Below, one piece after another: positions 18,924 through 37,549 of a stretch of DNA of 64,000 bases. Within the stretch, counting starts at the first letter, position 1. Each line of letters opens with the position of its first letter. Under the pieces are notes generated by a model. That model did not search any database and was not told the origin of the DNA. It was given only the letters and a program-made list of their open reading frames with translations. The stretch comes from an uncultured Candidatus Saccharibacteria bacterium (GTDB lineage Bacteria; Patescibacteriota; Minisyncoccia; Phycocordibacterales; DATDWN01): contig CAZNUU010000002.1 of NCBI GenBank assembly GCA_964576615.1, positions 27,428 to 91,427 of the forward strand, in the 5' to 3' direction. A program made the position numbers and the translations under genes.

Positions 18924-19041
18924 TTCTTACACTTGTGGTTAGGGAAGCATGTGCTATGTTTTAAAATAATGAATTTGGTTAAAAGTTGTAATAAGAAAAG
19001 ATCTCGCACTGACACGATACGAGATCTTGTCTTGTGCGAGA

Positions 19042-19287
19042 TCAACAGTTGAGGAGAAGGAACGGGACCGTATTTTCTCCCTCCGGGACATCGCCAATGA
19101 GGTCACGAGTAAAGTACGGAAATGTCCCCTTACCACCCGCAGGAGGTTTTTGTTCGCCATTACGGGTCAAACGATACCGACCACGTGCGAGGATACTTCC
19201 GTCGCCCAGATCGATTTCGTCACCTGTCGCGAGATCGCGATCGACTTCTACGAGCAACCAGAGCCCAGGTCCGATAATTGCTTGCAT
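19042..19287 (-). CDS. Hypothetical protein, GC-rich cassette 3
   Basis: 81 aa. SD AAAGGA. Hairpin terminator at 18996-19031. Overlapping ORFs in all frames (GC-rich), so the call is weak. Confidence 0.3.
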   Translation of the reverse strand: MQAIIGPGLWLLVEVDRDLATGDEIDLGDGSILARGRYRLTRNGEQKPPAGGKGTFPYFTRDLIGDVPEGENTVPFLLLNC

Positions 19288-19380
19288 GAGTGTTGTCCTT
19301 TCTAGGGCATAGATTACTAGAAACTAAACGAGTGTCAAATGAAAATGCGCCGGGGATTCCGGCGCATTGGGTACGAGCGA

Positions 19381-19623
19381 TTACGATTGACTTCGCTCGT
19401 GTTCAAGCATTTTCCGAGTTTGTCGAAACCTCGAATTCAAGACTCGGTCGCTGGACTTCCTCACATAGACCATGGAAGAAGCAGCAAGAACACAGACGGT
19501 TGCAGGGATGAAGTAGTAAACATTGCGGGAAAACCACCCTGTCGCAAAAAAGATTGCGCACAGAACCCAGGTCAGGCTCTCGGTGTTTTGCCACCATCGG
19601 CTCGACCAAATCGTTTTGTTCAT
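19381..19623 (-). CDS. Hypothetical 2-TM membrane protein, GC-rich cassette 3
   Basis: Perfect SD AAAGGAGG 4 nt before ATG. Terminator aatgcgccgg..ccggcgcatt at 19345-19372. Confidence 0.5.
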   Translation of the reverse strand: MNKTIWSSRWWQNTESLTWVLCAIFFATGWFSRNVYYFIPATVCVLAASSMVYVRKSSDRVLNSRFRQTRKMLEHERSQS

Positions 19624-19673
19624 TTCGCCTCCTTTACAAATAAATCAAAATTATTTTTCGATGTCAATACAAT

Positions 19674-19701
19674 GTTGACAAAATCAATAGAAAAATTAAT
19701 A
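19674..19701 (+). promoter_or_regulatory. Sigma70-like promoter (TTGACA-16/17-TAATAT) for the thrS leader
   Basis: ttgacaaaatcaatagaaaaattaatat. The -10 ends ~7 nt before the leader-peptide ATG. Confidence 0.55.
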
Positions 19702-19707
19702 TAAAAT

Positions 19708-19752
19708 TATGAAATCCATAAGAACAACAACCACAACTAGACTGACCCTTTA
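19708..19752 (+). CDS. Thr-codon-rich leader peptide (MKSIRTTTTTRLTL) upstream of thrS
   Basis: ATG AAA TCC ATA AGA ACA ACA ACC ACA ACT AGA CTG ACC CTT TAG. Five consecutive Thr codons, stop overlaps the antiterminator segment. Confidence 0.55.
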
Positions 19753-19779
19753 GTTCGAAGGTTGTTTTTCCTCAAACAA

Positions 19780-19813
19780 ATTAACGGCCCTCGAACAGAG
19801 GGTCGTTAATTTT
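19780..19813 (+). terminator. Attenuator terminator in the thrS leader (12-bp stem + TTTTT)
   Basis: ttaacggccctc-gaaca-gagggtcgttaa-ttttt. Upstream segment agttcgaagg (19751-19760) can pair with ccctcgaac as an antiterminator. Confidence 0.6.
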
Positions 19814-19853
19814 TGGCTAGATTATTAAACTAAAACAAGATAACATTAAATAT

Positions 19854-21113
19854 ATGTCGGAACATAAAACAAGAGAAAATAACGGCGAGATGGACGAGAA
19901 TGACCATCGAGTGCTAGGTAAGGAACTGGATCTATTCACTTTCTCAGATACAGTTGGCAAAGGCCTACCCCTTTATACCGAAAAGGGCGCGGCTATTCGT
20001 CGTGAGCTAGAAAGATTTATCATCGATGAAGAAATAAGACGCGGCTACAAACACGTTTCGACTCCGGATATAGCAAAACTAGATCTGTACGAGAAATCTG
20101 GTCACTATCCCTATTACAAGGATTCAATGTATGCGCCAATTGAAATTGATGAGGAGAAATTCATGCTGCGGCCAATGACTTGCCCCCATCATTTTGAACT
20201 TTATCTATCAAGACCAAGAAGCTATCGTGAATTACCAATGCGCATCGCCGAAGTAGCCAAACTTTATCGCTACGAAAATTCTGGCAATCTTGCGGGATTG
20301 GTACGGGTCAGATCTTTCTGTCTCGCCGATGGTCACATTATTTGTGCCGACAAAGATCAAGCTAGAGAAGAAGTAAAAGCCGCGCTTAGACTTATTGAAG
20401 ATGTTGTAGGAGTTTTTGGTTTGAAGAAAAATGAGGATTTTTGGTACAGACTTTCTTTGGGCGACCGCAAAGATGATAACAAATACTACAAAGATGACGC
20501 GGCTTGGGATGAGGCAGAGGGAGTCTTGCGAGAAGTTTTACAGAATCAGGATGTAAGATTTGAAGAGGCTGAAAACGAGGCTGCCTTTTACGGACCGAAG
20601 ATAGACATCCAGATGAAAGACGCTCGCGGCCAGGAAAATACTGCCTTTACTGTGCAATACGATTTCGTTATGCCAAAAAGATTCCACTTGGTTTACGTCG
20701 ACAAAGATGGCAAAGAGAAACTAGCGATAGTAATTCACCGTTCTTCCATTGGCGCAACCGAAAGAATAATGGCTTTCCTCATTGAAAAATACCGAGGTAA
20801 CTTTCCTCTCTGGCTGTCCCCTGTTCAAGTTAAAGTTATTCCGGTTCGAGAAAATCATAACGCTAAAGCTCGAGAAATTTTTGAAATGCTCCGCGATGCT
20901 GGAATTCGTGTTGAAATAGATGAAGCGGATGAAAATCTCGGCTCCAAAGTTCGTGATGCCAAAGTAAATAAAATTCCTTACTGGGTTGTTATTGGCGACA
21001 AAGAAGTTGAGTCTGGCAAACTTGCTTTGGAATCTCGCGATGGTAAAAAATCTGAACTTGATTCAGAAGAGCTTCTCGCCAAACTCCAAAAAGAAATTAA
21101 AGAAAAGAAATAA
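19854..21113 (+). CDS. thrS: Threonyl-tRNA synthetase, short form (catalytic core + anticodon-binding domain only)
   Basis: 419 aa. DHRVLGKELDLF and class II motifs. Lacks the TGS/editing N-terminal ~240 aa. Confidence 0.85.
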   Translation: MSEHKTRENNGEMDENDHRVLGKELDLFTFSDTVGKGLPLYTEKGAAIRRELERFIIDEEIRRGYKHVSTPDIAKLDLYEKSGHYPYYKDSMYAPIEIDEEKFMLRPMTCPHHFELYLSRPRSYRELPMRIAEVAKLYRYENSGNLAGLVRVRSFCLADGHIICADKDQAREEVKAALRLIEDVVGVFGLKKNEDFWYRLSLGDRKDDNKYYKDDAAWDEAEGVLREVLQNQDVRFEEAENEAAFYGPKIDIQMKDARGQENTAFTVQYDFVMPKRFHLVYVDKDGKEKLAIVIHRSSIGATERIMAFLIEKYRGNFPLWLSPVQVKVIPVRENHNAKAREIFEMLRDAGIRVEIDEADENLGSKVRDAKVNKIPYWVVIGDKEVESGKLALESRDGKKSELDSEELLAKLQKEIKEKK

Positions 21114-21119
21114 GCGAAG

Positions 21120-21150
21120 AGCCCGCCAGAGGTTGCTGACGGGCTCATGA
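21120..21150. terminator. Bidirectional terminator between convergent thrS and the zinc-finger gene
   Basis: gagcccgccagaggttgctgacgggctc hairpin. Confidence 0.55.
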
Positions 21151-21158
21151 ATGTACTC

Positions 21159-21650
21159 TTAGGAGTGGAAACGGTCAGTAGGCGGAAGAAGACGGCTGAG
21201 CTGCTCCCGACGTTGCCTGAGTTCGTCGATCTCGCGTTCCGCAGCCTTTCCTCGCTGGACAGTCTCATCCTTGTCGGAAATGAGTTGATCAGTCCGTAGC
21301 AGTTCGTGCCGCCGCGCCTGGACCAGACCAAGTTTCAGGACATGGTCCAGGGCTTCAATGACACGGTAGATCGAGACTCTCCCCCCATCTGTAGGCAGAC
21401 TGCTCTGGACGGCCCCTAGTACGGAACCTGCGCTTACAGATTGCCATCTGGTGATGAGCTCGAGATCATCTGCCCGAACCCTGACGACACTGTCCAGACC
21501 CATCTCGAATGTGAGTTCAGTCGTGAGAAGGATGTCCTTGCAGACTTCCACACACTCATCGCAGATGTAAACCACCGGGCCAGAGATGAGCTTCTTCACA
21601 TCACACTGTGCCTTGTTGCAGAACGAACAACGAAGAATCTCTTTTGTCAT
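21159..21650 (-). CDS. Stand-alone ClpX-type zinc-binding domain protein with unknown GC-rich C-terminal domain
   Basis: [34 protein letters not shown] matches zf-C4_ClpX. No AAA+ domain. Start set to M7 (SD GAGAGGTG) because -10 TATAGT / -35 TTGACA on the minus strand place the TSS downstream of M1. Confidence 0.55.
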
Positions 21651-27176: not shown

Positions 27177-27213
27177 GGGAGTATTGTAGCACTATAACGA
27201 CAAACCCACAGTG

Positions 27214-27286
27214 AGCCACCTGTCAGGCTTGAACTGACGACCTGCCGTTTACAAAACGGCTGCTCTACCAACTGAGCTAAGGTGGC
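27214..27286 (-). tRNA. tRNA-Thr (anticodon UGU)
   Basis: GCCACCT/AGGTGGC acceptor, D-arm GCTC-AGTTGGTA-GAGC, anticodon loop TTTGTAA, T-arm GTCAG-TTCAAGC-CTGAC. No encoded CCA. Confidence 0.85.
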
Positions 27287-32503: not shown

Positions 32504-33910
32504 CTACAAATTCTGTAGTGGATCAATCATAGTTGTCTGAATATTTTGGGCAATTTGCATGACTGAATTTCCGTAACTTAGGTTCGGTGGTCTGCGCGTG
32601 GAAGAGCAATTTGAACCGGAATAATACTTGCAAGCAGCATTTCTCTCTGCTGTGTAGGAACTTGGGTCTGCGCCGAGCTCTTGCATATAAATTGCCGTGG
32701 CCATAAAAGAGTGCTCGGGGTTCCAGGGATCAGCTATGTCAGCAGAAATTCCTAGCATATTTCCAACTTTATCTTTAAATAATTCCCAAGTCGAAGGAAT
32801 AAACTGAGATGGCCCCATCCCTCCCCCATAACCCCTACTTGAGGTATATGTTTGTCCCAACGGACACGAAACCGGCGTGTTACTCCAAGCTCTACCAAGC
32901 CTACTCGTAATATCTTGAAACGGAACTGTATCTCGTGGAGCCTTCATAACTCTTTCAAAAACACTTCCGCTATTTTTCCCTACACCATCTCCAGTATCAA
33001 GATTTGAGATGTAACATGACCCTTGGTTTTGCCCTAAATTACTTTCTTGAGTAATGATCGCAAGTAGAAATGCCGGCCTGACTCCAGTTTTAGTGCTAGC
33101 TTCCTGGGCAAATTTCAAGGCATCGCCGAACGGAATAGCAACTGCATCTCGAAGTGAGAACAACGCAGCCCTGATTTGCGCTGCTTTTTTCTGTCTCTCT
33201 GCCAAGACTTGAGAATACGTTTTTTCTTGAGTTTTACTTACCGAAATAAGATACTCTTTCTCTTTTTCATTAACTTCCACTTGTTTTTTCTGTACTTCTG
33301 CAGCCTGGCGAGTATCTGTCTCTTTATCTTTTTGTTTGCCCAGGGCCGCTTTCTCTTTTTCGGTTAAATCTTTAGTAACCTTAATTTCACCGAGTTTCTC
33401 TTTCAGAGATGTACCAACAGATTGAAAAGTATCAACATCACTAAAAAAATCAGAAATATCCTTGTTGCCAAGCATGACTTCTGGCAAACTAAACTGGTCA
33501 ATCTCGTTTGTCTTTCTTATGAGCTGCCCCAAGGATTCATGACCTTTGTCTATCTGTTCCTGAAGAGATTCAATATGCGCATTCTTTGCCGCAATATCCT
33601 TATCCAGCTGAGCAATTTGAACATTCTTCTGCTTAATAAAAGCTTTGGCTTGTTGAATTTTGGCATTTAAAACGGCAGCTTCTTGTTGAAGTGATTTAGT
33701 ATTGGCCTTGGTACTATCCAGGATTGCCTGCCACTTAGTAATATCCGCCTCCGTATCTGCTAACTCTTGGCGCCACTCGGCTTCTTGTTCAGCCTGGGTC
33801 AACGCCAAAGTAACCCTAACTGGCGCTAGAATGGCTAAAAATATGGCTACCCCTGCTGAAATTTTTACTAAGTCAGAATTTCGGAAAAAGAAAAACAACC
33901 TATTCAACAT
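32504..33910 (-). CDS. Membrane-anchored coiled-coil protein with C-terminal lytic transglycosylase (SLT) domain
   Basis: AIITQESNLGQ catalytic Glu region and GMGPSQFIPSTW. ~250 aa of N-terminal coiled coil. Confidence 0.7.
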   Translation of the reverse strand: MLNRLFFFFRNSDLVKISAGVAIFLAILAPVRVTLALTQAEQEAEWRQELADTEADITKWQAILDSTKANTKSLQQEAAVLNAKIQQAKAFIKQKNVQIAQLDKDIAAKNAHIESLQEQIDKGHESLGQLIRKTNEIDQFSLPEVMLGNKDISDFFSDVDTFQSVGTSLKEKLGEIKVTKDLTEKEKAALGKQKDKETDTRQAAEVQKKQVEVNEKEKEYLISVSKTQEKTYSQVLAERQKKAAQIRAALFSLRDAVAIPFGDALKFAQEASTKTGVRPAFLLAIITQESNLGQNQGSCYISNLDTGDGVGKNSGSVFERVMKAPRDTVPFQDITSRLGRAWSNTPVSCPLGQTYTSSRGYGGGMGPSQFIPSTWELFKDKVGNMLGISADIADPWNPEHSFMATAIYMQELGADPSSYTAERNAACKYYSGSNCSSTRRPPNLSYGNSVMQIAQNIQTTMIDPLQNL

Positions 33911-36559: not shown

Positions 36560-37549
36560 ATGAAAAATATTGACATTCTGGCTATCGGCGATGTGGTGAT
36601 TGATGCTTTTATTAAACTCCAAGATGCGAAGTTAAATGAAGACAAAACCGAATTATGTATCCGTTACGGCGATAAAGTTCCTTATGAGTCAGTTGAAGTC
36701 TGTTATGCGGTCGGAAATAGTGCAAATGCCGCTGTTTCTAGCTCGAGGCTAGGCCTAAATTCTGCGCTTTATGCCTATGTTGGTGGGGATCACAATGGCG
36801 AAGAATGTATAAATTCACTAAAAAAAGACGGAGTGGAGACAAAATATGTTCATGTAGATAATGAAAACAAGACAAACTACCACTATGTCCTTTGGTACGA
36901 TGTGGATAGGACTATTCTAGTTAAGCACGAGCATTTTAAATATGACTTCCAAATTGAGGACACTCCAAAATGGATTTATTTGAGCTCTCTTGGTGACAAT
37001 ACATTTGATTTTCAAATGCAGATAATGGATTACCTCGAAAGCCATCCGGAAGTAAAGCTGGCTTTCCAACCTGGCACATTTCAAATAAAAATGGGCGCAA
37101 AAGAGCTAGAGAGAATTTATAAAAGATCAGATATTTTCTTCTGTAATGTAGAAGAAGCTCAGCATATTTTAGGAGAAAGTTCGCGTGACTTAAAAACACT
37201 TCTTTCGGGAGTAAACAAACTGGGACCAAAAATGGTTGTCATTACGGATGGGTTTGATGGCGCTTATGTGTTCGACCCACCTGCGCAGGCAGGGAATGGC
37301 AAATATGTTTTTATGCCTGTTTATCCGCATACTCCTTTTGAGAGAACAGGGGCGGGAGATGCTTTTGCATCCACATTTGTGGCTTGTATAGCAATGGGTA
37401 AATCACTAGATGACGCCATAAGATGGGCACCTATAAACGGCATGTCCGTAACTCAACAAGTCGGCGCTCAAAAAGGATTACTCACGCCTGAAAAAATTGA
37501 GGAATTTCTTGCAAAAGCTCCGGCAGAATATCAATTGAAAGAAATATAA
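36560..37549 (+). CDS. PfkB-family sugar kinase (possible phosphofructokinase/ribokinase-like)
   Basis: TGAGDAF motif and N-terminal GDVVID. TATAAT -10 ends 9 nt before ATG. Confidence 0.8.
   Translation: MKNIDILAIGDVVIDAFIKLQDAKLNEDKTELCIRYGDKVPYESVEVCYAVGNSANAAVSSSRLGLNSALYAYVGGDHNGEECINSLKKDGVETKYVHVDNENKTNYHYVLWYDVDRTILVKHEHFKYDFQIEDTPKWIYLSSLGDNTFDFQMQIMDYLESHPEVKLAFQPGTFQIKMGAKELERIYKRSDIFFCNVEEAQHILGESSRDLKTLLSGVNKLGPKMVVITDGFDGAYVFDPPAQAGNGKYVFMPVYPHTPFERTGAGDAFASTFVACIAMGKSLDDAIRWAPINGMSVTQQVGAQKGLLTPEKIEEFLAKAPAEYQLKEI

Follow-up and report, generated by a model that had tools for sequence, protein, structure and literature searches.

A predicted threonine leader-peptide attenuator upstream of thrS in a bacterium of the candidate phyla radiation

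Bacteria belonging to the candidate phyla radiation (CPR; Patescibacteria) have tiny genomes with few recognisable regulators and mostly lack amino-acid biosynthesis, and to our knowledge almost nothing is known of how their genes are regulated. The question raised by the locus investigated in this study is whether such a bacterium adjusts the transcription of thrS, the gene of threonyl-tRNA synthetase (ThrRS), to the supply of charged tRNA-Thr by means of a short translated leader. The locus lies in a stretch of 64,000 nucleotides (nt) of contig CAZNUU010000002.1, referred to as the window, for which a preliminary description had reported a promoter, an open reading frame (ORF) with a run of Thr codons and a terminator upstream of thrS; all three are present in the sequence. 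We propose that this element is probably a threonine-responsive, ribosome-mediated (leader-peptide) attenuator that makes thrS transcription depend on how much charged tRNA-Thr is available. Judging from the best matches of the window ThrRS, which are threonine--tRNA ligases of Paceibacterota and Parcubacteria, the organism appears to be a Parcubacteria/Paceibacterota bacterium of the CPR.

The leader promoter (19675-19702, plus strand), near-consensus and of sigma-70 type, consists of a -35 box TTGACA at 19675-19680, a 16-nt spacer and a -10 box TAATAT at 19697-19702; it matches 10 of the 12 consensus positions and was the top promoter-like site within 19000-21500 in our promoter scan. Exactly 6 nt separate the -10 box from the ATG at 19709, which opens an ORF of 14 codons for the putative leader peptide MKSIRTTTTTRLTL (19709-19753, plus strand, stop TAG at 19751-19753), reading ATG AAA TCC ATA AGA ACA ACA ACC ACA ACT AGA CTG ACC CTT TAG. 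The short ORF upstream of thrS therefore carries tandem codons of the relevant amino acid, since five of its 14 codons are the consecutive Thr codons ACA ACA ACC ACA ACT (19724-19738, plus strand), with a sixth Thr codon standing outside the run at 19745-19747. When the whole window was scanned for short ORFs with at least four identical residues in a run, the leader ORF alone was both intergenic and promoter-proximal. It was also observed that the tRNA-Thr(UGU) gene, located 7 kb downstream (27213-27286, minus strand), reads ACA, which accounts for three of the five codons of the run.

Between the leader ORF and the structural gene stands an intrinsic terminator (19779-19814, plus strand), with a 14-bp stem (19779-19792/19798-19811), the loop GAACA (19793-19797), five T residues at 19810-19814 and the tail UAAUUUUU. 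Its GC-rich core of 9 bp pairs 19784-19792 with 19798-19806 (ACGGCCCUC/GAGGGUCGU), its predicted energy is -23.2 kcal/mol, and it ends 40 nt before thrS; a simple terminator scan listed this hairpin in the minus-strand reading only. The preliminary description had identified these elements properly, with two positions off by one: the segment agttcgaagg occupies 19752-19761, and the stem ttaacggccctc starts at 19781, not 19780. The gene that follows, thrS (19854-21113, plus strand), encodes a short-form ThrRS of 419 aa that displays the class II core and anticodon-binding domains (PF00587, PF03129) and no editing domain, and it is likely to be the gene that the leader regulates.

With the ATG lying 6 nt past the -10 box, transcription is predicted to start on or next to its A, and the leader mRNA probably has no 5' untranslated region. 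The suggestion of a leaderless leader peptide, made in the preliminary description, is consistent with the window genome, as a Shine-Dalgarno-like motif was found in 9 of the 49 window ORFs of at least 150 aa, and 23 of the 49 have, 4-10 nt before the ATG, the end of a TAnnnT element that often reads TGnTATAAT. From such motif counts, leaderless mRNAs seem to be the usual arrangement in this genome. Examples of a -10-like element close to the ATG were noticed at the gyrB start (23825, minus strand), at 36560 (plus strand) and at 32504-33910 (minus strand).

The distribution of the leader was investigated in 80 thrS loci from species-representative genomes, out of more than 558 relatives, and in four further loci around the closest protein relatives. 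A homologous leader, with homologous promoter, ORF and terminator, was found at the syntenic dnaE...thrS-pspC-gyrB locus of two other genomes, L004 (ThrRS 81% identical) and L038 (68%). Loss of the Thr-codon run in relatives had been set beforehand as the observation that would speak against an attenuator; at the syntenic site upstream of thrS, runs of six and eight in-frame Thr codons were found in these two genomes. The L004 leader has the layout TTGACA-17-TAGGAT followed after 6 nt by GTG and encodes the peptide VKSIQITTTTTTIMPSRSR with six Thr codons, while that of L038 has the same promoter layout and encodes VKSALRTTTTTTTTILPSSR with eight; both promoters were confirmed by the promoter scan. 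The leader DNA is 63-75% identical across the three genomes, and the 250 nt upstream of it resemble the shuffled background. Runs of at least four ACN codons are rare: with both strands counted, the window has three and the related loci, 1.05 Mb in all, have 16, and two of these 16, of six and eight codons, are the ones at this position in L004 and L038.

The manner in which the three leaders vary is informative as well. The start codon, ATG or GTG, lies 6 nt past the -10 box in all three leaders despite differing spacer sequence, it always stands in the Thr frame, and the ORFs measure 14, 19 and 20 codons. The Thr run extends over 15, 18 and 24 nt (five, six and eight codons), against a constant partner strand of about 9-10 nt rich in G and U. 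The three leaders have 19 Thr codons between them, in which A-C at positions 1 and 2 is invariant and only the third position varies. Taken together, the start spacing, the frame, the run length and the third-position variation appear to indicate that the ORF is read as codons. An nhmmer profile of the three leaders found no further homologue at all in 85 related loci, hence no leader copy lacking its Thr run among them. A pattern scan of metagenomes (TGAAATC..4xACN..CCTCGAA) gave 86 matches, of which only L081 and L139 are real, being exact duplicates of L004 and L038; the other 84 are chance matches that fall within unrelated coding DNA, mostly GC-rich, and have no thrS in their vicinity, and the pattern was probably too specific.

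In the mechanism that we propose, RNA polymerase would initiate at the A of the ATG at 19709 or right beside it, and a ribosome would translate the 14-codon ORF while transcription proceeds. With Thr-tRNA plentiful, the ribosome would reach the UAG and cover 19744-19766, so that the terminator (19779-19811 plus the U tract) would form and transcription would stop about 40 nt before thrS. With Thr-tRNA scarce, the ribosome would stall at 19724-19738, leaving 19744-19766 free and keeping it out of hairpin 1:2, and the freed strand would pair with the 5' arm, the loop and the 3'-arm apex of the terminator, allowing read-through into thrS. If no ribosome is present, hairpin 1:2, formed by the Thr codons and GGUUGUU, would be followed by the terminator.

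The predicted folds of the leader RNA agree with this scheme. The 152-nt window transcript folds at -36.4 kcal/mol, compared with -21.2 +/- 3.2 kcal/mol for shuffled sequences (z = -4.8; none of 200 shuffles as good), and the fold z-scores against shuffles range from -4.8 to -5.6. Hairpin 1:2 (19722-19770, plus strand), a putative anti-antiterminator and possibly a pause hairpin, joins GAACAACAACC with GGUUGUUUUUCC and has the inner stem AACUAGA/UUUAGUU; the Thr codons form its 5' strand and pair with GGUUGUU just past the ORF, at -12.7 kcal/mol in the free nascent RNA. The same hairpin is predicted for the nascent transcripts of all three genomes at -11 to -13 kcal/mol, and in each of them the regulatory codons pair with GGUU(UU)GUU. 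The antiterminator 5' strand GACCCUUUAGUUCGAAGGUUGUU (19744-19766, plus strand) spans the stop codon and can form 21 bp with 19783-19804. The preliminary description had proposed pairing between the segment at the stop codon and the 5' arm of the terminator; such pairing is present, and it extends further than was claimed, taking in the loop and the 3'-arm apex as well as the 5' arm. In the window, the duplex of the leader 3' part with the terminator reaches -29.7 kcal/mol against -10.5 +/- 2.9 kcal/mol for shuffled sequences, and the z-scores of this duplex in the three genomes are -6.6, -2.9 and -3.5, values reached by 0, 13 and 4 of 1000 shuffles.

The action of a ribosome was imitated by masked folding, in which the nucleotides under a ribosome are excluded before the minimum-energy fold is computed, for the window, L004 and L038. 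The free RNA of the window and of L004 adopts hairpin 1:2 together with the terminator, at -35.9 and -35.7 kcal/mol. When the early or middle Thr codons are masked (codons 6-8 in the window), the minimum-energy fold of the window RNA is the 21-bp antiterminator, which is also the minimum-energy fold of the full-length L038 RNA under the same mask; in L004 the antiterminator is favoured only in a nascent transcript that reaches no further than half of the 3' arm. When the stop codon is masked, the terminator is the sole structure formed in the window and in both homologues. An antiterminator that excludes the terminator, is freed by a stall on the regulatory codons and is covered by a ribosome at the stop was accordingly obtained by masked folding, and the attenuation logic put forward in the preliminary description yields a predicted switch in all three genomes. 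The terminated and antiterminated states, computed at -35.9 and -31.8 kcal/mol in the window, -35.7 and -32.4 kcal/mol in L004, and -30.0 and -30.0 kcal/mol in L038, are nearly isoenergetic in each genome according to the folding model. As a supporting detail rather than statistics, given three sequences, a compensatory change specific to the antiterminator was noticed: the pair A37-U95 of the window is G-C in both homologues, whose C, like the U of the window, can still pair with a G in the terminator (G-C and G.U, respectively). MAFFT/RNAalifold on the three leaders recovered hairpin 1:2 and the terminator; its alignment slips at the loop (5 versus 4 nt) and understates the conservation of pairs, and the helices were compared from the individual folds instead. 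The region adjoining the thrS ATG is predicted to be unstructured.

Two smaller features of the homologous leaders were also observed (L004 2880-2895 and 2952-2968; L038 2356-2373). At the end of the leader ORF, L004 and L038 have a small hairpin followed by UUUUGUU that the scan flagged as terminator-like, and it could be a pause site; L004 harbors in addition an extra hairpin, AGGTGGAAAAACCACCT, past the terminator.

No curated RNA family accounts for the leader. At the gathering threshold, Rfam reported only tRNAs in the window, with neither Thr_leader (RF00506) nor any other leader family, and it gave no match in 11 related loci, including L004 and L038. At E <= 10, the region 19500-20000 returned chance-level matches only and no leader family; in agreement with the preliminary description, the T-box (RF00230) had no match at this level and the window leader has no GGUGGNACCGCG motif. 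Every defining feature that can be tested in a sequence was found; the functional type appears to be that of the classical trp/thr/pheM attenuator, standing outside the curated leader families.

Comparison with the relatives places this leader in a wider setting. Nine of the 80 relatives (L012, L023, L026, L029, L047, L066, L069, L077 and L078) harbor a compact, divergent T-box-like leader at thrS, about 100-200 nt upstream of the gene (2781-2956 in L012), which displays AGAGA, a covarying stem around GGCUACCAACC with an ACC specifier (ACG in L077), CUAAUCU, GGUGGAACCGCG and a terminator. The L012 copy scores 23.6 bits against the Rfam T-box (E = 0.0016), whereas the gathering threshold is 93 bits, so that standard annotation would miss such leaders. 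The occurrence of T-box-like leaders beside the Thr leader at the same gene suggests that this clade uses two or more different devices to put thrS under the control of tRNA-Thr charging. Leader similarity (75% for L004-L038, 63% for window-L004) is the reverse of ThrRS similarity (70% and 81%), and the thrS coding DNA of L004 and L038 is 70% identical; such a pattern could have come about through repeated loss, unequal rates or lateral transfer of the leader. We suggest, only tentatively and as something rather less than probable, that the promoter, the leaderless ORF, the switch and the initiation block together make up a self-contained, lineage-specific cassette, and that in a few Parcubacteria this cassette, perhaps acquired through lateral transfer, took the place of a T-box or a bare promoter at thrS. 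It was also noticed that the same leader precedes both forms of ThrRS, the short one without the tRNA_SAD editing domain in the window (419 aa) and L004 (413 aa, 3010-4251) and the one bearing tRNA_SAD in L038 (585 aa, 2473-4230).

Several observations weigh against the proposed attenuator. The Thr leader was detected in three of 86 related thrS loci, and most relatives have no leader of any kind: none was found upstream of thrS in the genomes whose ThrRS comes closest to that of the window and L004 (L167, L168, L170 and L171, with the proteins P0003, P0004, P0008 and P0012; 82-86% identity) or in the nearest relatives of L038 (L039 and L040; 74%). Its absence from the closest relatives marks the leader as dispensable and patchy. 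The folding results are not uniform either, as the terminated fold of the free L038 RNA (-30.0 kcal/mol) is tied with the antiterminator, and in the full-length L004 RNA with a stalled ribosome the terminator is still the thermodynamic minimum, so that read-through in L004 would need to be kinetic. With three independent examples only, two of which (L004 and L038) are 75% identical, covariation statistics are weak. Moreover, an ACA-rich repeat is open to slippage expansion and here also acts as a pairing strand, and its conservation could be partly structural. The conserved A/U-rich block in front of thrS, described below, could be a separate, weak leaderless thrS promoter, which would weaken or uncouple the effect of an attenuator. 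Again, on a read-through transcript the ribosome would have to initiate internally, and thrS lacks a Shine-Dalgarno motif for this; the worry is answered by the T-box genomes, in which the thrS AUG is used internally without such a motif. The transcription start, the translation of the ORF, the coupling of transcription with translation and the response to threonine are all steps that we infer.

The A/U-rich block (19818-19853, plus strand) reads TAGATT-17-TAACAT-7-ATG in the window and appears in the alignment of all three leaders (L004 2971-3009, L038 2435-2472; pattern TAGATTATTTAA..ATAGGATAATAT..ATG), its -10-like element, which ends 7-9 nt before the thrS ATG, being TAACAT in the window and TAATAT in L004 and L038. 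From its sequence, the block may be either a weak second promoter or a translation-initiation region without a Shine-Dalgarno motif. This is the origin of an alternative that we hold to be unlikely, in which the leader is an independent small transcript, a gene for a 14-aa peptide or a small RNA with a constitutive terminator, while thrS relies on a weak leaderless promoter of its own within this block and the Thr run is unlinked to the gene. The conservation of the block in all three leaders agrees with such a promoter, as do the many window genes with a -10 box at a similar distance from the ATG and the relatives lacking the leader, in which a promoter of the form TTGTCA...TGnTATGCT directly abuts thrS about 9 nt before its ATG. 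The block nonetheless scores only about 7 of 12 consensus positions, lies under the threshold of the promoter scan and was not reported by it, and an independent transcript would leave unexplained why the 3' end of the leader is complementary to the terminator in three genomes with balanced folds, and why the codons of the cognate amino acid dominate the ORF in each of them. Nor would a second promoter exclude the attenuator, since a basal second and a regulated first promoter are possible together; if the block is active, the attenuator would supply a regulated increment over a basal level or, as the alternative has it, would be unlinked to thrS.

Less probable still is a ribosome-independent riboregulator, whose ACA/ACC tract and hairpins would be sensed by tRNA-Thr in a T-box-like manner or by ThrRS, the ORF being incidental. 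The T-box-like leaders at the same gene in relatives, the location of the Thr-codon tract within a conserved helix and the established binding of E. coli ThrRS to its own leader lend it some plausibility. Against it stand the failure of the T-box model to match at E <= 10, the lack of a UGGNACC bulge and of AGAGA or specifier-loop motifs, and the loops CUGACCC and GAACA, which are unlike the anticodon loop UUUGUAA of tRNA-Thr(UGU); the start codon at a fixed distance from the -10 box and in the Thr frame in three genomes, the restriction of Thr-run variation to third positions, and a run of 15-24 nt, longer than a partner strand of 9-10 nt can pair, also speak against it. That a low-complexity ACA repeat came to lie beside an ordinary terminator by chance is very improbable. 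The sequence is A-rich and short trinucleotide-like repeats can come from slippage, but one and the same architecture is found in three genomes between which the DNA flanking it cannot be aligned, ACN runs of this length are as scarce as counted above, and the fold z-scores are far from the shuffled background; conservation had already disfavoured this explanation. The leader-peptide attenuator is the reading that we retain.

The gene order of the window around the leader is dnaE, a small divergent ORF, the leader, thrS, a zinc-finger ORF (minus strand) and gyrB (minus strand). The divergent ORF, located between dnaE and the leader promoter (19381-19623, minus strand), encodes 80 aa with no Pfam match, and unrelated small minus-strand ORFs occupy the same position in L004, L038, L167 and L171. 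The idea that the leader terminator marks the end of this upstream gene was rejected, as the neighbour is transcribed away from the leader and has a strong terminator of its own at 19368-19344 (minus strand).

If true, a clean and conserved thrS attenuator would be direct genomic evidence of transcription-translation coupling in CPR bacteria, and likewise of a leaderless mini-ORF with which they sense tRNA charging; under the cassette scenario the coupling would be tight, and 70S initiation at a 5'-terminal start codon would have to be quick enough to steer a polymerase only about 60 nt ahead. The presence of a T-box-like leader, a Thr leader or nothing at one syntenic gene offers a natural example of interchangeable regulatory devices, and further members of the Thr-leader family could be sought with a model of it. 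As a mechanism this is textbook material, a known principle extended to a new gene and lineage, with no new principle added. Among candidate papers, as far as their titles and abstracts tell, our literature search found no leader-peptide attenuator for Patescibacteria/CPR; it likewise found no T-box riboswitch described for them, and no thrS leader with tandem Thr codons. With its tandem codons, canonical terminator and explicit antiterminator, the leader would be the first robust Thr-codon attenuator on thrS. The novelty implied in the preliminary description was somewhat overstated, as synthetase-gene attenuators beyond pheST, namely those of Streptomyces trpS and leuS (Seliverstov et al. 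2005, PMC1262725), and a leaderless 'thrL' upstream of thrS in S. lividans (Droste et al. 2021, PMC8079986) had already been reported.

With reference to known systems, the window leader resembles E. coli thrL (RF00506) and the trp, his, leu and phe leaders in having a short ORF with tandem codons, 1:2, 2:3 and 3:4 hairpins and a terminator before the structural gene. It differs from them in that it would regulate a tRNA synthetase and not a biosynthetic operon, in being apparently leaderless with no Shine-Dalgarno motif and no Rfam match, and in its Parcubacteria/CPR host; its run also consists of Thr codons only, whereas thrL has Ile codons as well. With E. coli pheM-pheST and Streptomyces trpS and leuS it shares the attenuation of a synthetase gene by cognate codons of a leader peptide, while the amino acid, the gene and the phylum are different and the sequences unrelated. 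The T-box leaders of thrS, both those of Firmicutes thrS/thrZ and those of the Parcubacteria relatives, have in common with it the gene, the tRNA-Thr charging signal, the terminator/antiterminator output and the genomic position, but in a T-box the uncharged tRNA itself is recognised by a specifier codon and the UGGN bulge, no ribosome being needed, and the window leader has no T-box motifs. The E. coli thrS operator is likewise a cis-acting 5' leader controlling thrS, yet its target is translation initiation, and it works by mimics of the anticodon arm to which ThrRS binds; by inspection, this type was rejected for the window, where neither CUGACCC nor GAACA is an anticodon-like loop comparable to UUUGUAA and the start codon is preceded by a terminator at a distance of 40 nt. 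A further likeness is to S. lividans, in which a leaderless small ORF, 'thrL', lies upstream of thrS and was proposed to encode a threonine-dependent leader peptide, MKRVRPFLETTPGFVPAR, with two Thr residues; one hairpin without a U tract was found there and termination was unclear, and leaderless leader peptides are known in Actinobacteria (PMC8079986). In the Parcubacteria leaders, by comparison, five to eight Thr codons follow one another, the terminator is canonical, and an explicit antiterminator is conserved across the three genomes.

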